From: Escherichia coli
GTDB taxonomy: Bacteria > Pseudomonadota > Gammaproteobacteria > Enterobacterales > Enterobacteriaceae
Assembly (NCBI RefSeq): GCF_030384885.1
Contig: NZ_CP128613.1
Reading direction: 5' to 3' (one strand)
Length of the DNA stretch: 64,000 nt
Shown: piece by piece, positions 13,665-61,978 of the stretch
How positions within the stretch are numbered: position 1 is the stretch's first letter
Layout of the letters: the number at the start of each line of letters is the position of its first letter
Made by a program: the position numbers and the translations under genes
Notes under the pieces: generated by a model
What the model was told of the DNA's origin: nothing
The model's input: only the letters and a program-made list of their open reading frames with translations
Databases searched by the model: none

Positions 13665-13790
13665 ACCAAACGACTCGGGGTGCCCTTCTGCGTGAAGGCT
13701 GAGAAATACCCGTATCACCTGATCTGGATAATGCCAGCGTAGGGAAGTCACAGACCACCAGGTCATTGCTTCTTCACGTTATGGCAGGAG
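13665..13790 (+). ncRNA. TPP (thi-box) riboswitch in the thiM 5' leader
   Basis: Leader contains GGGGUGCCCUUCUGCGUGAAGGCUGAGAAAUACCCGUAUCACCUGAUCUGGAUAAUGCCAGCGUAGGGAAGUC immediately upstream of the thiM RBS/ATG; matches the classic thiM aptamer I recall. Confidence 0.88.
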
Positions 13791-29457: not shown

Positions 29458-29775
29458 ATGAAAAAGACAGCTGCTATATCATTAATTAGTGTTTTTCTTA
29501 TGTCTGGTTGTGCTGTGCATAATGATGAGACAAGTATCGGTAAATTCGGTCTTGCCTATAAAAGTAATATCCAGCGTAAACTCGATAACCAATACTACAC
29601 TGAAGCCGAAGCATCTTTAGCCAGGGGAAGAATATCTGGTGCGGAAAATATAGTGAAAAATGATGCAGCTAATTTCTGTGTTACTCAGGGCAAAAAAATG
29701 CAGATAGTTAACCTGAAGACTGAAGGGGCAGGATTACATGGCGTCGCGCGTCTGACATTCAAATGTGGAGAGTGA
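29458..29775 (+). CDS. yegR: small lipoprotein-like protein YegR
   Basis: Track ORF 29398..29775; start at MKKTAAISLISVFLMSGCAV (lipobox-like). Confidence 0.7.
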   Translation: MKKTAAISLISVFLMSGCAVHNDETSIGKFGLAYKSNIQRKLDNQYYTEAEASLARGRISGAENIVKNDAANFCVTQGKKMQIVNLKTEGAGLHGVARLTFKCGE

Positions 29776-29945: not shown

Positions 29946-30032
29946 AAAAAATAAGCCCGTGTAAGGGAGATTACACAGGCTAAGGAGGTGGTTCCTGGTA
30001 CAGCTAGCATTTTATGGGTTATGTTTTTCAGC
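29946..30032 (-). ncRNA. cyaR: CyaR (RyeE) Hfq-dependent sRNA
   Basis: Reverse complement reads GCTGAAAAACATAACCCATAAAATGCTAGCTGTACCAGGAACCACCTCCTTAGCCTGTGTAATCTCCCTTACACGGGCTTATTTTTT, which matches the 87-nt CyaR sequence as I recall it, including the terminator hairpin and U-tail. Confidence 0.9.
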
Positions 30033-30116
30033 GAAACGGATGATAACCTTAATAAATGCAGCTGTATGTGATCGGTTTCTAAGAATTTTCCATCCGGGAA
30101 AAATAATCGAAATTAA

Positions 30117-40329: not shown

Positions 40330-43300
40330 TTACGCCTCCTCTTCATGACGAGCAAAGCGGCTTTTGGTCCACAATGCCAGGCGGTCGAACAGCAAATAAA
40401 TCACCGGCGTGGTAAACAGCGTCAGCACCTGGCTGACTATCAGACCGCCGACCATGCCGATACCTAACGGACGACGCAGTTCCGCGCCGACCCCGGTACT
40501 TAACATCAGCGGCAACGCGCCAAGCAGAGCCGCCAGAGTGGTCATCAGGATCGGACGAAAACGCAACAGACAGGCCTGGTAAATTGCATCGCGCGGCGAC
40601 ATGCCTTGCTCGCGCTCGGCAGCCAGCGCGAAGTCGATCATCATGATGGCGTTTTTCTTCACAATACCGATCAGCAAAATAATGCCGATGATGGCGATCA
40701 CATCCAGCTCACTTCCGGCAATCATTAGCGCCAGCAGTGCGCCAACACCTGCCGTTGGCAACGTCGAGAGAATGGTGATCGGGTGGATAAAGCTCTCGTA
40801 CAGAATGCCGAGCACGATATACATCGCCACCACCGCTGCGACAATCAGCCAGACAGTGCTGCCCAATGCCGACTGGAAGGCGAGGGTGCTGCCCTGGAAT
40901 TGTGTGGTGATATCCACCGGCAGATTCAGCGTCTTTTCGGTGTCCATAATCGCCTGCACCGCATCACCGAGAGAATAGTTATCCGGCACGTTAAAGGAGA
41001 TGGTCGTTACCGGGAACTGATCCAGATGGTTGATGGAGAGCGGCGCAAAACGCTGCTCAATTTTGGCAATTGAGCTTAGCGGCACCACGCCACCGTCGCT
41101 GCTGGTCAGGCGGATAGTATCCAGCGCCGCGAGGCCTGGGGTATTTTCGGTATTGTGCTCCAGCACCACGCGATACTGGTTAGCCTGAGTATAAATGGTG
41201 GAAATCAGTCGCTGACCAAACGCGTTGTACAGGGCGTTATCGACGTCCGCCATGCTGATCCCCAGACGGCTGGCGCTGTCGCGATCAACGTTGACATACG
41301 CCACCAGCCCTTGGTCCTGCCAGTCGCTGGAGACATCAGAAAGCTGTGGCAGCTGCTGGAGTTTTTCCACGAGTTGCGGCACCCAGGTGCTGAGCGCATC
41401 CAGCGATGTGGCCTGCAAGGTAAACTGGTACTGGGTGCGGCTGACCTGAGTATCGATAGTCAGATCCTGCGTTGGTTGAAGGAAGAGATCGACACCCGGC
41501 ACTTTATCTACTGCCGTTTGCAAACGGGCGATGACTTTTTGCACCCGATCATCACGTTCATCCAACGGTTTGAGGTTGATCTGTAAACGCGCACTGTTCA
41601 GCGACGGGTTAGTACCATCAACGCCAACAAATGAGGTCAGGCTTTGCACCGCCGGGTCCTGCAAAATCACATCAGCGACCTGACGTTGCCGCTGGGCCAT
41701 ATTGGCAAAGGAGCTGGATTGCGGTGCCTGCAAGGTGCCCTGAATAATGCCGTTGTCCTGTACCGGGAAGAAACCTTTCGGAATGAACACCCATAAGAGA
41801 ACGCTAAGCAGCAGCGTGCTGAGCGCTACGCTTAAAGTCAGCCACGGATGATTCAGCACTTTCGCCAGTCCACGACCATAGGCGGCAATTATCCTGTCGA
41901 ACATTTTTTCCGAGGCCCGGGAGAAGCGGTTCTGTTTACGCAGCGACTCCTGGCTGAGCATCCGCGCGCACATCATCGGTGTCAGGGTCAGCGACACCAC
42001 GGCTGAGATCAAAATCGCTACCGCCAGGGTAATGGCAAATTCGCGGAACAGTCGCCCGACGATATCGCCCATAAACAGCAGCGGGATCAGCACTGCAATC
42101 AGAGAGAAAGTCAGTGAGATAATGGTAAAACCGATTTCACCTGCGCCCTTGAGCGCCGCTGCCAGTGGTTTTTCGCCTTTTTCGATATAGCGGGAAATGT
42201 TTTCGATCACCACGATGGCGTCGTCGACAACGAATCCGGTGGCGATGGTTAACGCCATCAGCGTCAGGTTATTGATCGAAAAATCGAGAAACACCATGAC
42301 CGCGAAGGTGCCGATTAACGACAGCGGCACGGCGACGCCAGGAATGATGGTCGCCGGAATATTGCGCAGAAACAGGTAGATAATCATGACTACCAGCGCG
42401 ATAGCCATCATCAGTTCAAACTGGGTATCGTCGACTGATGCGCGGATATTGGTAGTGCGATCGGAAAGTACCGTCACTTTTACCGATTTCGGCAGACTCT
42501 CGGTAAGCTGTGGCAGCATCTGCCGAATGCTGTCGGCGGTAGAGATAATGTTAGCACCGGGCTGGCGCTGAACATTCATCACAATGGCCTGTTCTTTGTT
42601 CGCCCATGCGCCAAGCCAATTGTTTTCTGCGCCTTGTTCAACGGTTGCGACATCACCAAGACGAATCGGCGCGCCGTTCTGGTAGGCGATAATCAACTGG
42701 CGATATTCATCCGCAGATTGCATCTGGTCGTTCGCGGAAAGCGTGACCGCGCGGGAAGGGCCGTCGAGGCTACCTTTAGCCGAGTTAACGTTAGCGCCGG
42801 TAATGGCGGTGCGCACGGTTTCGCTGGTCAGGCCGAGGGCGGCAATCGCCTGGGCGTTAAGTTTGACGCGAACAGCCGGACGCTGACCGCCGGAAAGCGT
42901 CACCAGCCCGACGCCGGAAATCTGCGAGATCTTCTGCGCGACGCGGGTTTCCACCATATCTTCCACTTGGGTCATCGGCATGGCGGTTGAGGTGACGGCA
43001 AGCGTCATGATTGGCGGATCTGCCGGGTTCACTTTGCTGTAAACCGGCGGGTTAGGCAGATCGCTCGGCAACAAGTTGGTCGCAGCGTTAATCGCGGCCT
43101 GCACTTCCTGCTCGGCGACATCCAGCGGTAATGTTAGCTGGAACTGCAAAGTGATAACTGACGCGCCGCCGGAACTTTGCGACGACATCTGTTTCAGGCC
43201 GGACATCTGCCCGAACTGGCGTTCGAGCGGTGCGGTAACGGCAGAGGTCATGACATCCGGGCTGGCACCTGGGTAGAGGGTGACCACCTGAATGGTTGGA

Positions 43301-43452
43301 TAGTCCACTTCCGGCAGCGCCGAAACGGGCAGGGCACGATAACCGATAATCCCGGCGAGTAAGATCGCCACCATCAGCAGCGTAGTGGCGACAGGACGCA
43401 TAATAAACAGGCGCGACGGGCCGCCTGTGCTGCTCGGGGGTAACACCTGCAT
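40330..43452 (-). CDS. mdtB: RND multidrug efflux transporter subunit MdtB
   Basis: 1040 aa; AcrB-like; directly abuts mdtC. Confidence 0.95.
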
Positions 43453-44699
43453 CAGGAGCGTGCTCCTTTTTTCGCGTATTCGCGGCTGGTGGCTTTCTCT
43501 TCCGAAGTGGTGGCGCTTTGAGCTTCAACCACTTCCACTTTCGCCCCTTCGGTCAGACGATCAATGCCATCCGTCACTACGCGGTCGCCTGCAGAAATAC
43601 CTGCGCGGATCACCACTTTCTGACTGTCCTGAATGCCCGGCGTCACCAGATGTTTGCTGACCTTGTTTTCGCTATTCAGCACCCAGACAAAATGGCCTTC
43701 GTTGCCCATTTGCAGGGCGGCGGTGGGGATCACCACGGCGTTTTGTTCGGTGTCGACTAACATGCGCGCGTTAACAAACTGATTGGGAAACAGCGCATCA
43801 TCCTGATTATTAAAGCGTGCTTTCACTTTAATCGTACCGGTAGTGGCATCGATTTGGTTATCGAGACTTAACAGCGTGCCTTCACTTAATTTCTTCGAGT
43901 TGGTGCGATCCCAGGCTTCAACAACCAGCGGTTTTCCGGCTTTTTGCGCCTGTACTACGGTAGCGATATCGCTTTCCGGCAGGGTAAAGAGCAAATCGAT
44001 AGGATGCGTCTGGGTGATCACCACAATCCCGGTGGTATCACCACTGGAGATTTGGTTACCAACATCAACCTGCTTGAGACCAACGCGACCATCGACTGGT
44101 GCGGTGATGCGGCTCCAGTCGAGTTGCAGCTGTGCGCTGGCGACGCTCGCTTCATCAGCCTTAATGGTACCTTCGGTTTCACTGACCAGCGCCTGTTGGG
44201 CATCCAATTCCTGACGGGAGACGAGATTGGTTTTTGCCAGTTGCTGATAACGCGCTAAATCACGGCGGGCGTTGGCTAGTGTGGCTTTATCTTTTGCCAG
44301 TTGCCCCTGAGCTTGTGCTAATGCAACTTTGAACTGGCTGGGGTCAATTTCTGCCAGTAAATCGCCTGCTTTGACCTGCTGACCCTCCTGGAAATGTAAT
44401 GCCATCAGTTGACCATCTACGCGACTGCGCACCGTAACGGTGTTAGCAGCGGTAATCGTACCAAGCCCGGTGAGGTAACGCGGAACCGCCTGTTCCACGG
44501 CAGTTGCTGCCTGAACCGGGGCCAATGGGCCGGAACGCATACCACGGCGGCCACCGGCTGGCGACTGCTGTGCTTGCTTCGTCGCACCTGGCGCTGCGCT
44601 CTGGGATTCATTGCGGCCTTGCCAGAACCAGAAAGCGGCGATGGCGGCGATAACCACCACGATTACGATTACCCAACGGGATTTATAACTGCCTTTCAT
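43452..44699 (-). CDS. mdtA: membrane fusion protein (periplasmic adaptor) MdtA
   Basis: Track ORF 43452..44846; start moved to [16 protein letters not shown] (415 aa). Confidence 0.9.
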
Positions 44700-44763: not shown

Positions 44764-44932
44764 AGAAAAATGGAGGAATTATGAAACACTGTCGGGAATC
44801 GTCTGAATGACGGGCACTTTTGCGAGCACGCATCCAGTAATAACACAGGAAACTATTTTATCTACGCGTTAGCGATAGACTGCATTCAGGGCAAAAGGAG
44901 GTAGGCCGACGATTTCAGCGGGACGCTGAAAC

Positions 44933-45073
44933 GGGAAAGCCCCTCCCGAGGAAGGGGCCTTAAATAAGGAAAGGGTCATGATGAAGATACTCATCATCGT
45001 GGTGCTCTTAGTCGTTAGCTACCCAGCTTACTAAGACTACCAGGGCGGGGAAAACCCCGCTCTACCCTCACTC
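44933..45073 (-). ncRNA. sibA: Sib antisense antitoxin RNA, unit 1 (approximate ends)
   Basis: Ends placed by analogy to the K-12 sibA/ibsA geometry (sib fully overlaps ibs on the opposite strand); not mapped from sequence. Confidence 0.45.
44978..45034 (+). CDS. ibsA: type I toxin Ibs, 18-aa hydrophobic peptide (MMKILIIVVLLVVSYPAY)
   Basis: ATGATGAAG... ORF preceded by an AGGAAAGGG RBS; matches the Ibs family. Confidence 0.75.
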   Translation: MMKILIIVVLLVVSYPAY

Positions 45074-45260
45074 CTGAAAATATGCCTTCACGGTCAGAAT
45101 GTCAATCCGCAGGCTTTGCAGTCTGCGATCCTGCCAGCAAATATTCTTTGCGAGTCGTTACGCAATAATCACAGATGAAACTATTTTATCTACGCGTTAG
45201 CGATAGACTGCATTCAGGGCGAAAGGAGGTAAGCCGATGATTTCAGCGGGACGCTGAAAC

Positions 45261-45401
45261 GGGAAAGCCCCTCCCGAGGAAGGGGCCTTAAATAAGGAAA
45301 GGGTCATGATGAAGTGGATCATCATCGTGGTGCTCTTAGTCATTAGCTTACCGGCTTACTAAGACTACCAGGGCGGGGGAAACCCCGCTCAACCCTCACT
45401 C
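45261..45401 (-). ncRNA. sibB: Sib antisense antitoxin RNA, unit 2 (approximate ends)
   Basis: As unit 1. Confidence 0.45.
45306..45362 (+). CDS. ibsB: type I toxin Ibs copy 2 (MMKWIIIVVLLVISLPAY)
   Basis: Second repeat unit; same architecture. Confidence 0.75.
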   Translation: MMKWIIIVVLLVISLPAY

Positions 45402-45588
45402 CTGAAAGTATGCCTTCACAATCAGATTGTCAATCCGCAGGCTTTGTAGTCTGCGATCCTGCCAGCAAATATTCTTTGCGAGACGTTACGCAATAATCAC
45501 ATGTGAAACTATTTTATCTGCAAGTTAGCGATAGACTGCTTGCATGGCGAAAGGAGGTAGGCCGCCGATTTCAGCGGGACGCTGAAAC

Positions 45589-45729
45589 GGGAAAGCCCCT
45601 TCCGAGGAAGGGGCCTTAAATAAGGAAAGGGTCATGATGAAGCTACTCATCATCGTGGTGCTCTTAGTTATTAGCTGGCCAGCTTACTAAGACTACCAGG
45701 GCGGGGGAAACCCCGCTCTACCCTCACTC
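45589..45729 (-). ncRNA. Sib antisense antitoxin RNA, unit 3 (approximate ends)
   Basis: As unit 1. Confidence 0.4.
45634..45690 (+). CDS. type I toxin Ibs copy 3 (MMKLLIIVVLLVISWPAY)
   Basis: Third repeat unit; same architecture. Confidence 0.7.
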   Translation: MMKLLIIVVLLVISWPAY

Positions 45730-45907
45730 CTGAAGTTATGTTACTCCACCCTTATTGTCAATCTGTAAGTCCACGTTCTTGCGGGGCGAATAGCAAAACC
45801 CTCTGCGCTTATGGGCCGAATTCTGAAAGTTGCTTTGCCTGCTCTTATTTCATTATTGCAGTCGGTATGATACCGGACCTCAATAATTCTCTAAGAAAGG
45901 ATTTCTT

Positions 45908-46567
45908 ATGAGCGAACAAATCACGTTTGCCACCAGCGATTTTGCCAGTAACCCGGAACCACGTTGCCCCTGCATTTTGCTGTTGGATGTTTCTGGTTCG
46001 ATGAGTGGTAGACCTATTAATGAACTTAACGCCGGATTGGTTACCTTTCGCGATGAGCTGCTTGCCGATTCGCTGGCCTTAAAAAGAGTGGAACTCGGTA
46101 TTGTGACGTTCGGCCCGGTGCATGTGGAACAACCATTTACCAGCGCCGCTAATTTTTTCCCGCCCATCCTGTTTGCCCAGGGAGATACACCAATGGGGGC
46201 CGCCATTACCAAAGCCCTGAATATGGTTGAGGAGCGCAAACGTGAGTATCGCGCCAATGGTATTTCCTATTATCGTCCGTGGATTTTCATGATCACTGAT
46301 GGTGCACCAACCGATGAGTGGCAGGCTGCTGCCAACAAGGTGTTTCAGGGGGAAGAAGATAAGAAGTTTGCCTTCTTTTCCATCGGTGTTCAGGGGGCGG
46401 ATATGAAGACGCTGGCCCAAATCAGCGTTCGTCAGCCTTTGCCTCTTCAAGGATTACAATTCCGCGAACTGTTTAGCTGGTTATCCAGTTCGCTGCGTTC
46501 GGTTTCCCGCTCCACGCCGGGAACGGAAGTTGTACTGGAAGCGCCAAAAGGCTGGACGTCAGTGTGA
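45908..46567 (+). CDS. yegL: von Willebrand factor A (vWA) domain protein
   Basis: 219 aa; MIDAS-type DxSxS motif ([11 protein letters not shown]); 4-nt overlap with yegK. Confidence 0.88.
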
Positions 46568-47325
46568 GCTGGCGTCTGGTCTATGCATCAGCCGTTGGAA
46601 CGTCGCACATCAGCGCTGACTTGTCTTGCCAGGATGCCTGCCAGATGCAGGTTGCCTGGCTAGAAGACCAGCAGCCATTATTGTCGGTATTTGTCGCTGA
46701 TGGCGCAGGCAGCGTCTCGCAGGGAGGCGAAGGTGCGAAGCTTGCCGTCAATGAAGCGATGGCTTATATATCGCAAAAAGTGCAGGGTGGGGAATTGGAG
46801 CTTAATGATGTCCTCGCCACGGATATTGTACTGACTATTCGTCAGCGACTTTTTGCCGAGGCAGAGGCCAAAGAATTAGCGGTTCGCGATTTTGCCTGCA
46901 CATTTCTGGGACTGATTTCATCGCCTAACGGCACATTGATTATGCAGATTGGCGATGGTGGCGTGGTCGTAGATTTGGGGCACGGTTTGCAATTGCCGCT
47001 CACGCCGATGGTGGGTGAATATGCCAACATGACGCATTTCATTACCGATGAAGATGCCGTTTCCAGACTGGAAATTTTCACCAGCACTGAGCGTGCGCAT
47101 AGAGTTGCAGCATTTACGGATGGTATTCAGAGACTGGCGTTAAATATGCTGGATAATTCTCCGCATGTGCCTTTCTTTACCCCGTTTTTCAATGGACTGG
47201 CGTCAGCAACGCAGGAACAACTCGATTTATTACCTGAATTGTTAAAGCAGTTTTTGTCCAGCCCAGCGGTAAACGAGCGTACCGATGATGATAAAACGTT
47301 AGCACTGGCTATGTGGACAGAATAA
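46564..47325 (+). CDS. yegK: PP2C-family Ser/Thr protein phosphatase
   Basis: 253 aa; Asp-rich metal-binding patches ([16 protein letters not shown]); coupled to yegL. Confidence 0.85.
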
Positions 47326-47389
47326 ACATCGCATGGCGGTTGAAGACAACGGTTCAACCGCCAGTTTAAGCAATCAATATAATGGCTGG

Positions 47390-47851
47390 CTAGCGAACTA
47401 ATTTTGCTCTTAGCTCGTCGGCTTCTTCTTTTGGATAGGTGACCAATAAAGGATCAATGGTATAACCACCGTAAATTTTATCCCCGCGCGTATACATCCA
47501 GTCTGAAATATCTTCTTTCTTGATTTTCCACTCCTGGCCATATTCTACGTTTGTAACAATACCAGGGTCATTGCTTATTATACCAATAAACATGCCGTTA
47601 GAATAAGTGACATCCGTGAGCCAGAAATGCTCGGTTTCTCCGCGATCGGTTATCGGGGCTTTGACTGCGAAAGTATCAGCATCTTTTTTATTCATAACTT
47701 CGATGAATTGATCGGTTTCTTTCCGCGCATGTTGAATGGCGTCAGACATCGCCTTTTTATCATAACCTCCTGTCACTAACGTATCCGAAATCTCACAATA
47801 GCTTGCGGTAGTAAAAAATAGCAGACACAACATAAGTAATATCTTTTTCAT
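47390..47851 (-). CDS. yegJ: small exported protein YegJ
   Basis: 153 aa with signal peptide (MKKILLMLCLLFFTTASYC). Confidence 0.8.
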   Translation of the reverse strand: MKKILLMLCLLFFTTASYCEISDTLVTGGYDKKAMSDAIQHARKETDQFIEVMNKKDADTFAVKAPITDRGETEHFWLTDVTYSNGMFIGIISNDPGIVTNVEYGQEWKIKKEDISDWMYTRGDKIYGGYTIDPLLVTYPKEEADELRAKLVR

Positions 47852-61320: not shown

Positions 61321-61788
61321 AGTAAGTACAAAACCTATTCGTTGTATGACAAATGTCACAATTCGATCATGGATAAATCGGGGCAAAAATGCAATGTTGC
61401 AGCACTATTTATCTCATATAATTTGAGGGTTATAACCTCACATTATCCCTGAATTAAAAGTGGCAATAATAAAACATTATTTAAGAAATATCGCATATGG
61501 AGACACTATATTAATTATTGTCAACCTAAAGAAAGTCCTAAAAAACATATTGATTGACACTTAATATAATTCTTAAAAATAGCCAATTGCCGAATTGTTA
61601 CCTTGCCTGCTATTCCGTTAGCTGTAACACTTCCTCCTGCATTATTGGAAGCCAATATTCAATTACCATAATGCCACCTTATATCTGGAAAATTAATTCA
61701 CGGAATAACGCTTTTTCATAATCGACTGCATGATGAAAGAGTTAGAAAATCTAAACTAAATCAGTGTATTGGTAGCTAAAAAGCCAGG

Positions 61789-61796
61789 GGCGGTAG
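61789..61796 (+). promoter_or_regulatory. ops element (GGCGGTAG) of the JUMPstart sequence in the wza leader; RfaH-dependent antitermination site
   Basis: GGCGGTAGCGTG present ~190 nt upstream of the wza ATG in a long untranslated leader. Confidence 0.75.
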
Positions 61797-61978
61797 CGTG
61801 TCTGGATGCCTGAAAGACCAGTCTGAATTATTCTGTCAATAGCCTGCGGATGAAATCAATTTTTTTAGGACTGATGCCAGTTAAATTTTTGTTCAATTAA
61901 CTGCAAGGTAAATGTGCATGGCGACATTGCTATTAATAGTGCACAGGATAATTACTCTGCCAAAGTGATAAATAAACA

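Follow-up and report, generated by a model that had tools for sequence, protein, structure and literature searches.

The intergenic region between mdtA and yegL raises two linked questions in the chromosome studied here: how a toxin-antitoxin locus that Escherichia coli K-12 carries as two units, sibA/ibsA and sibB/ibsB, comes to hold three, and whether each of the three toxins depends on an antisense RNA of its own. The DNA analysed (the window, a stretch of 64,000 nucleotides from E. coli contig NZ_CP128613.1) was credited in a preliminary description with three tandem 328-bp units spanning 44845–45790. Tandem Repeats Finder (TRF) recovers essentially the same span, placing at 44838–45734 an indel-free array that has a 328-bp period, 92% matches and a score of 1542. 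It counts 2.7 copies, short of a full 3.0, since the sequence past the Sib +1 region of unit 3 departs from the spacer seen in units 1 and 2; when the three ibs/sib units are aligned, their mean column identity is 92%. The intergenic region measures 1208 bp in the window, and its mdtA and yegL flanks are those of the K-12 sibA/sibB locus, lying in the orientation opposite to that of K-12. The anatomy and synteny of the locus are direct observations. Very probably, the chromosomal Ibs/Sib type I toxin-antitoxin module is present here as a tandem array of three units, and unequal recombination has changed the size of that array. The features are listed in Table 1.

Table 1 Features of the ibs/sib array and its flanks in the window. 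TRD, TRD-equivalent segments assigned through the Sib alignment.
Feature	Positions	Strand	Evidence and remarks
mdtA, left flank	43452..44699	-	ORF list and annotation
ibs/sib tandem array	44838..45734		three functional units (predicted); TRF and alignment
Sib RNA, unit 1, 136 nt, SibB-like	44934..45069	-	Rfam; K-12 SibB alignment; fold -61.1 kcal/mol, z -4.5
TRD2-equivalent segment, unit 1	44959..44978		Shine-Dalgarno and start codon; Sib P1 3' strand and J1/7
ibs, unit 1, 18-aa ORF MMKILIIVVLLVVSYPAY (WP_100249771.1)	44978..45034	+	translation; Pfam 31.6 bits; annotated in NZ_CP027579.1
P6-loop variable patch, units 1, 2, 3	44987..44990, 45315-45318, 45643-45646		ibs codons 4-5; Sib 80-83
TRD1-equivalent patch, units 1, 2, 3	45013..45025, 45341-45353, 45669-45681		Sib positions 45-57; ibs codons 12-16
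Sib-1 promoter, TTGACA, 17 nt, TATTTT	45077..45105	-	promoter scan, 10/12 matches; Rfam model start
Sib RNA, unit 2, 136 nt, SibB-like	45262..45397	-	Rfam; alignment; fold -60.6 kcal/mol, z -5.6
ibs, unit 2, 18-aa ORF MMKWIIIVVLLVISLPAY (WP_106907789.1)	45306..45362	+	translation; Pfam 34.1 bits; annotation
Sib-2 promoter, TTGACA, 17 nt, TACTTT	45405..45433	-	read from sequence, compared with K-12 sibB
Sib RNA, unit 3, 136 nt, SibB-like body	45590..45725	-	Rfam; alignment; fold -61.0 kcal/mol, z -5.4
ibs, unit 3, 18-aa ORF MMKLLIIVVLLVISWPAY (WP_100249772.1)	45634..45690	+	translation; Pfam 40.4 bits; annotation
Conserved block ACCCTCACTCCTGAA, Sib +1 region	45720..45734		SibB-body/sibA-promoter switch in unit 3
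Sib-3 promoter, TTGACA, 17 nt, TAACTT	45733..45761	-	alignment of terminal units
yegL (vWA-domain protein), right flank	45908..46567	+	ORF list and annotation

Membership of the units in the ibs/sib type I family, as originally proposed, finds agreement among Rfam, Pfam, synteny and RefSeq annotation. On the toxin side, all three peptides pass the Pfam model PF13956 (Ibs_toxin; gathering score 27) over profile positions 1–19 of 19, each query having been lengthened by two in-frame residues from upstream, since the input had to be at least 20 aa; a doubled Ibs peptide searched against NCBIfam returned noise only. [quoted passage not shown] The 18-codon ORFs are intact in every unit, as first described, free of frameshifts and internal stop codons, and their Shine-Dalgarno and start region (AAGGAAAGGGTCATGATG) is identical to that of K-12 ibsB. 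Taken in the order of units 1, 2 and 3, the peptides carry I, W and L at residue 4, L, I and L at residue 5, V, I and I at residue 13, and Y, L and W at residue 15. The preliminary description had correctly listed I/L at residues 4–5 and Y/L/W at residue 15, but had missed W4 in unit 2 and the V/I difference at residue 13. The unit 2 peptide differs by F15L from the KWI-type peptide that O157:H7 and strain 605 carry, and the unit 3 peptide is K-12 IbsB with F15W; in the Ibs peptides of other strains residue 15 is Y, F, W or L, always inside intact ORFs. Consensus searching and alignment to the ibsC region gave no convincing −35/−10 pair for an ibs promoter in A/B-type units, and the transcription start that Han et al. 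mapped for ibsC aligns to no obvious −10/−35 pair in the window units.

On the opposite strand, the Rfam model RF00113 (SIB_RNA; gathering score 56) matches three times, far above what chance would produce, over its full length (1–147 of 147, E about 1e-29), at 44963–45105 (137.4 bits), 45291–45433 (137.3 bits) and 45619–45761 (139.0 bits). The model starts at the −35 hexamer TTGACA, and the ends of the RNAs were placed by alignment to the annotated K-12 Sib RNAs (SibB). PGAP marks only the three Ibs genes in NZ_CP027579.1, where the Sib RNAs have no annotation, and Rfam fills in the three that are absent. In each unit the whole ibs ORF, together with its Shine-Dalgarno sequence and start codon, lies inside the antisense Sib. 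The window Sibs differ from K-12 SibB at 7–9 of 136 positions, and the same fold is predicted for all three, with z-scores computed against shuffled sequences: a closing helix, a G+C-rich hairpin and a long hairpin bearing TRD1 are followed by an AUGAUGA/UCAUCAU hairpin, a single-stranded UCCUUAUUUAA segment and the terminator hairpin. The Sib strand also contains ORFs of 42–48 aa (for example 44869–44997, − strand), which were rejected as genes: their starts lie at the palindromic AUGAUGA, no Shine-Dalgarno sequence precedes them, and they extend beyond the Sib terminator.

Judged on sequence alone, a sigma-70 promoter and an intrinsic terminator for an RNA of ~136–145 nt are present in all three units. 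Both hexamers of the Sib-2 promoter are those of K-12 sibB, its TACTTT being the native sibB −10, and the Sib-3 promoter is homologous to that of K-12 sibA (TAATTT), not to those of units 1 and 2. The promoter scan did not call Sib-2 (TACTTT) or Sib-3 (TAACTT), whose −10 hexamers are weak against the consensus (that of Sib-2 falls below the −10 threshold). The Sib terminator is clear in the folds as a G+C-rich terminal hairpin of 11 bp, which UUUCC follows just as it does in K-12 SibB; a consensus terminator scan was empty because the tail (UUUCCCGUUU) is too poor in U residues.

Two readings would lower the number of working units. We consider it improbable, first, that any of the units is a relic in decay, its promoter silent or its peptide non-toxic. 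The −10 of Sib-3, TAACTT, is one change from the TAATTT of sibA, unit 2 carries its F15L substitution near the C terminus, where IbsC has residues required for toxicity (review PMC8309996), and K-12 ibsB is itself annotated merely as a ‘putative’ toxic peptide; however, no unit has a damaged ORF, Shine-Dalgarno sequence, −35 hexamer, terminator or Sib fold, frameshifts and stops are absent, and position 15 naturally takes all four residues across strains in intact ORFs. It is very hard to believe, on the other hand, that a repeat of two units was misassembled into three. Units that are 92% identical can mislead assemblers, yet these units are distinct at diagnostic sites, the chromosome record is finished, a second record agrees with the locus at 99% identity or more, and many independent genomes, all complete, hold arrays of three, four and five units drawn from these same types.

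How the three units are related to those of other strains is evident from a comparison of nine loci, namely those of K-12, O157:H7, strain 605, MIN9, FDAARGOS_1268, muskdeer13-4, AR76.3 and S1-ZIM-01-A together with the window. Two unit types occur in them: a 19-aa IbsA type that normally adjoins yegL, and an 18-aa SibB type whose number is variable. The window array consists of three SibB-type units and lacks the usual yegL-proximal ibsA/sibA unit; annotated ibsA is also missing in about 10 of 57 sampled genomes. The mdtA-proximal K-12 unit, sibB/ibsB (b4437/b4668), has the same intergenic region and orientation, a 136-nt Sib and an 18-aa Ibs, but it is the one SibB-type unit of K-12 against three in the window. 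K-12 SibB is set apart from all window units by its TRD1 and by position 110, a single TRD2 site, and K-12 IbsB differs from the window peptides at residues 4–5, 13 and 15. As for the yegL-proximal K-12 unit, sibA/ibsA (b4436/b4667), the sibA promoter and tail are homologous to the stretch from the unit 3 promoter to yegL, whereas the ibsA/sibA body (encoding the 19-aa MMKHVIILVILLVISFQAY) is absent from the window. The arrays of O157:H7, strain 605 and FDAARGOS_1268 are built of the same 328-bp unit and the same peptide types (KIL, KWI and KLL), but they terminate in ibsA/sibA, which the window array does not have. In strain 605 the peptides of units 1 and 3 are identical to those of the window, the KWI-type unit 2 has F15 where the window has L15, and a fourth unit is ibsA.

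Alignment of the terminal units reveals that unit 3 of the window is a chimera whose body is of SibB type and whose promoter and tail are of sibA type. Ahead of the conserved block in its Sib +1 region the unit matches unit 3 of strain 605, and past that block, up to yegL, the resemblance is to the terminal (sibA) unit in K-12, O157 and strain 605. On the simplest reading, the block would mark the crossover point of a recombination between a SibB-type unit and sibA that deleted the ibsA/sibA body. The array of muskdeer13-4 has the same chimeric architecture. More generally, the array has probably arisen, and is probably still being resized, through unequal homologous recombination between units that are ~92% identical, the loss of the yegL-proximal ibsA/sibA in the window strain having presumably left the chimeric last unit behind.

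Variation in copy number between strains, which the preliminary description had anticipated along with the two copies in K-12, is observed directly across E. coli. A flank-only query of 1.5 kb from the mdtA side and 1.5 kb from the yegL–pphC side was used, and the intergenic length was read from the match span in 57 complete E. coli genome records, taken at even steps down the ranking, in which both flanks were joined. The lengths form discrete classes: 559 bp for one unit (1 of 57 genomes), about 887 bp for two (24, several K-12 derivatives among them), about 1215 bp for three (23), about 1544 bp for four (8) and 1871 bp for five (1). Three units are therefore about as common as the two of K-12, and O157:H7 (including EDL933) is among the strains that have three. 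For O157:H7 Sakai, seven Ibs genes have been reported against five in K-12, with lineage-specific duplications (Fozo et al. 2010, PMC2887945). Publications and annotation already cover the ibs/sib system, along with its duplication in tandem and its differing copy number, and the three-unit state is a known, annotated system in one of its common copy-number states. What is particular to the window array, namely the absence of an ibsA unit, a chimera as its last unit and the F15L substitution in unit 2, is minor in each case and within documented variation.

Transcription of the window units, the toxicity of their peptides and the repression of one by the other are expected from their homologues. 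In K-12, overproduction of Ibs is toxic and Sib relieves this toxicity (PMC2943612, PMC8309996); Ibs inserts into the inner membrane and depolarises it, and ATP falls (review PMC8309996). By analogy, each unit would express an 18-residue hydrophobic Ibs from the + strand and, constitutively from the − strand, a Sib of ~136 nt with perfect complementarity to the complete ibs ORF, its Shine-Dalgarno sequence and its start codon. First contact would be made, as proposed for K-12, through the TRD1 loop, which is complementary to the ORF, and/or through the single-stranded TRD2, from which pairing would spread. The duplex would then block ribosome binding and expose the mRNA to RNase III, so that the membrane-depolarising toxin would not be made; a block of initiation and RNase III degradation have been described for the Sib/ibs duplex (PMC2943612; PMC4147584). 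A 2025 preprint describes binding of Salmonella IbsA to subunits a and b in the F_o complex of F_oF_1 ATP synthase, and reports that a His of IbsA is necessary for binding the b subunit (bioRxiv 10.1101/2025.05.26.656083). The variable ibs codon 4 coincides with that His residue, and by this analogy the codon 4 variants might differ in target too. Tandem arrangement is shared with ldr/rdl and with zorO-orzO/zorP-orzP, which likewise pair small hydrophobic toxins with antisense RNA antitoxins and likewise lie in tandem in one intergenic region with a strain-variable copy number (PMC2887945). They are nevertheless other sequence families, in which Orz/Zor and Rdl/Ldr pair in the 5′ UTR, whereas Ibs/Sib pair across the entire ORF.

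The differences between the units are confined to few places. Pairwise, the window Sibs differ at 7–10 of 136 positions (7, 19, 45, 48, 49, 56, 57, 80–83 and 125), and alignment of the units places the variable antisense region at the TRD1 patch, with four differing sites in each pair of units, and at the P6 loop. These domains can be read against work on SibC, in which TRD1 (+46 to +68, P5 loop) targets the ORF and TRD2 (+99 to +115, J1/7) targets the translation initiation region; either alone represses, and SibC given the SibD sequence in these domains acts on ibsD instead (Han et al. 2010, PMC2943612). Among 20 SibB-type units from nine strains, the multi-allelic columns of the sib/ibs overlap fall only at ORF nucleotides 10–13, which are codons 4–5 and the loop of the AUGAUGA hairpin (P6), and at ORF nucleotides 36–51, which are codons 12–17. 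ORF nucleotides 14–35 (within codons 5–12) and the stretch from −32 to +9 are invariant save for one site, which varies in two of the 20 units. Mapped through the Sib alignment, the variable patch at codons 12–17 is TRD1, so natural unit variants map onto an experimentally defined determinant. Synonymous third positions make up four of the seven variable sites in this patch, which indicates variation at the RNA level. The codon 4–5 and C-terminal patches combine variously across strains, KIL, KWI, KLL and KRL being found with SY, SF, SW and SL; this reshuffling of variable modules points to exchange between units. The 20 nucleotides equivalent to TRD2 (TGACCCTTTCCTTATTTAAG), which recur at +328 (unit 2) and +656 bases (unit 3), do not vary among the window units, whereas TRD2 differs among all five K-12 Sibs. 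Under the model of Han et al. both TRD1 and TRD2 differ between co-resident paralogues; in the window TRD1 differs and TRD2 is the same.

This distribution bears on the second question in both directions. The suggestion that the variants mark discrimination determinants holds in so far as they fall in the published TRD1 (PMC2943612) and in the P6 loop, but TRD2 does not discriminate among these units; likewise, the presumption that each toxin needs its own Sib agrees with the differences in TRD1 and sits uneasily with a common TRD2, a domain able to repress alone. Strict pairing, in which each Sib represses its own ibs only, the TRD1 and P6 differences discriminate and all three antitoxins are indispensable, is in our estimate a real possibility, if somewhat short of an even one. 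It would accord with K-12, whose Sibs repress only their cognate ibs mRNAs, ibsA excepted (PMC2943612), and with the clustering of between-unit differences in TRD1 (Sib 45–57) and the P6 loop (80–83), the sole multi-allelic sites of the overlap in the 20 units, partly synonymous in TRD1. SibA and SibE, moreover, share the region from +90 to +113, yet ibsE is not repressed by SibA (PMC2943612); TRD2 identity alone is therefore not always enough. The difficulty for strict pairing is that a single TRD suffices in SibC, where a contiguous TRD2 helix of 25 bp retargets the RNA to ibsD (PMC2943612), and that non-cognate pairs in the window have at least 41 contiguous nucleotides in common across P6-3′, P1-3′, J1/7 and the terminator, a measure used here for its TRD2 figures only, as it is inflated for TRD1 by runs touching the domain edge. 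With TRD2 identical in the three units, strict one-Sib-per-toxin specificity is thus not assured.

Cross-repression through the common TRD2 is plausible among these units, and we rate it about equal with strict specificity: that any one Sib silences all three ibs mRNAs, the antitoxins being partly redundant, comes close to an even prospect. The shared complementarity would cover the translation initiation region, and TRD2 of SibC acts independently of TRD1 (PMC2943612). There is a precedent in K-12, which tolerates ibsA without SibA (PMC2943612), and the units are often gained, lost and reshuffled, from one to five copies, which would be more tolerable if loss of a sib promoter were not lethal. 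Against this stand the SibA/ibsE counter-example (PMC2943612) and the concentration of variation in TRD1, synonymous sites included, which suggests selection for distinctness. If one Sib does protect against all three toxins, recombination may add or remove units without killing the cell. A broader formulation, which we put forward tentatively and hold to be doubtful rather than probable, is that, provided TRD2 is sufficient by itself as in SibC, the Sibs are a cross-protective pool buffering the gain and loss of units, and that the array is a recombining cassette system, not three independent pairs.

Beyond correct annotation, the significance of the three-unit locus is slight, and the array serves chiefly to illustrate, in a natural setting, how unequal recombination resizes a type I toxin-antitoxin locus. 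Its one useful lead lies in SibB-type paralogues that have TRD2 in common, since they pose the question of whether one recognition domain suffices for cross-repression.

Directly past each Sib terminator, inside the presumed ibs 5′ leader, lies a perfect 8-bp hairpin (TTTCAGCG nnn CGCTGAAA). The same hairpin is kept in the A and B units of K-12, and an altered form of it is found upstream of ibsC, ibsD and ibsE. The element could serve as a second Sib terminator or as a structure of the ibs leader, and we regard it as a candidate for either. Among the other RNA elements of the window, the CyaR/RyeE sRNA is placed in the yegS–yegQ interval, adjoined by an annotated 105-aa hypothetical protein (~29458-29775), and the TPP riboswitch and JUMPstart element are both expected here.

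Features of the array neighbourhood and other RNA elements in the window
Feature	Coordinates	Strand	Score	Remark
8-bp perfect hairpin, TTTCAGCG nnn CGCTGAAA	44913-44931, 45241-45259, 45569-45587			one per unit
CyaR/RyeE sRNA	29949-30034	-	100.7 bits	Rfam RF00112
TPP riboswitch	13666-13762	+	71.5 bits	upstream of thiMD
JUMPstart element	61762-61800	+	57.3 bits	upstream of wza, colanic acid cluster
pphC (PP2C serine/threonine phosphatase gene)	46564-47325	+		directly 3′ of yegL

The array flanks (43200-44699 and 45908-47407, covering mdtA, yegL and pphC) were compared with complete E. coli genomes in a search whose query consisted of the two flanks. Their identity to nearly all other genomes is ~94-96%, with 94.1% for K-12 and 95.8% for the top non-self match. 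The metG gene of the window is 100% identical in 2020CK-00188, and the closest record besides 2020CK-00188 and 2013C-4282, whose sequence matches the window throughout, shares 98.5% identity. Judged from these sequence comparisons, the window strain appears to come from a thinly sampled lineage, or else the array neighbourhood is unusually diverged. RefSeq labels the pphC gene of the window strain a pseudogene, interrupted by an internal stop; the gene is intact in K-12 and at the remaining loci retrieved for comparison.

In the same flank search, a few genomes, such as 2014C-3011 and 98197, show no junction between the mdtA and yegL sides within 2 kb, which suggests that their array either has taken up an insertion or is far longer. 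Within the five-unit array of FDAARGOS_1268, two neighbouring units (positions 2433-2817 of the retrieved mdtA–yegL locus) have identical ibs ORFs and identical downstream sequence, with MMKILIIVVLLVISFPAY present twice in the adjoining units. On sequence grounds the two units appear to stem from a tandem duplication of very recent date, a direct illustration of ongoing unequal crossing-over.
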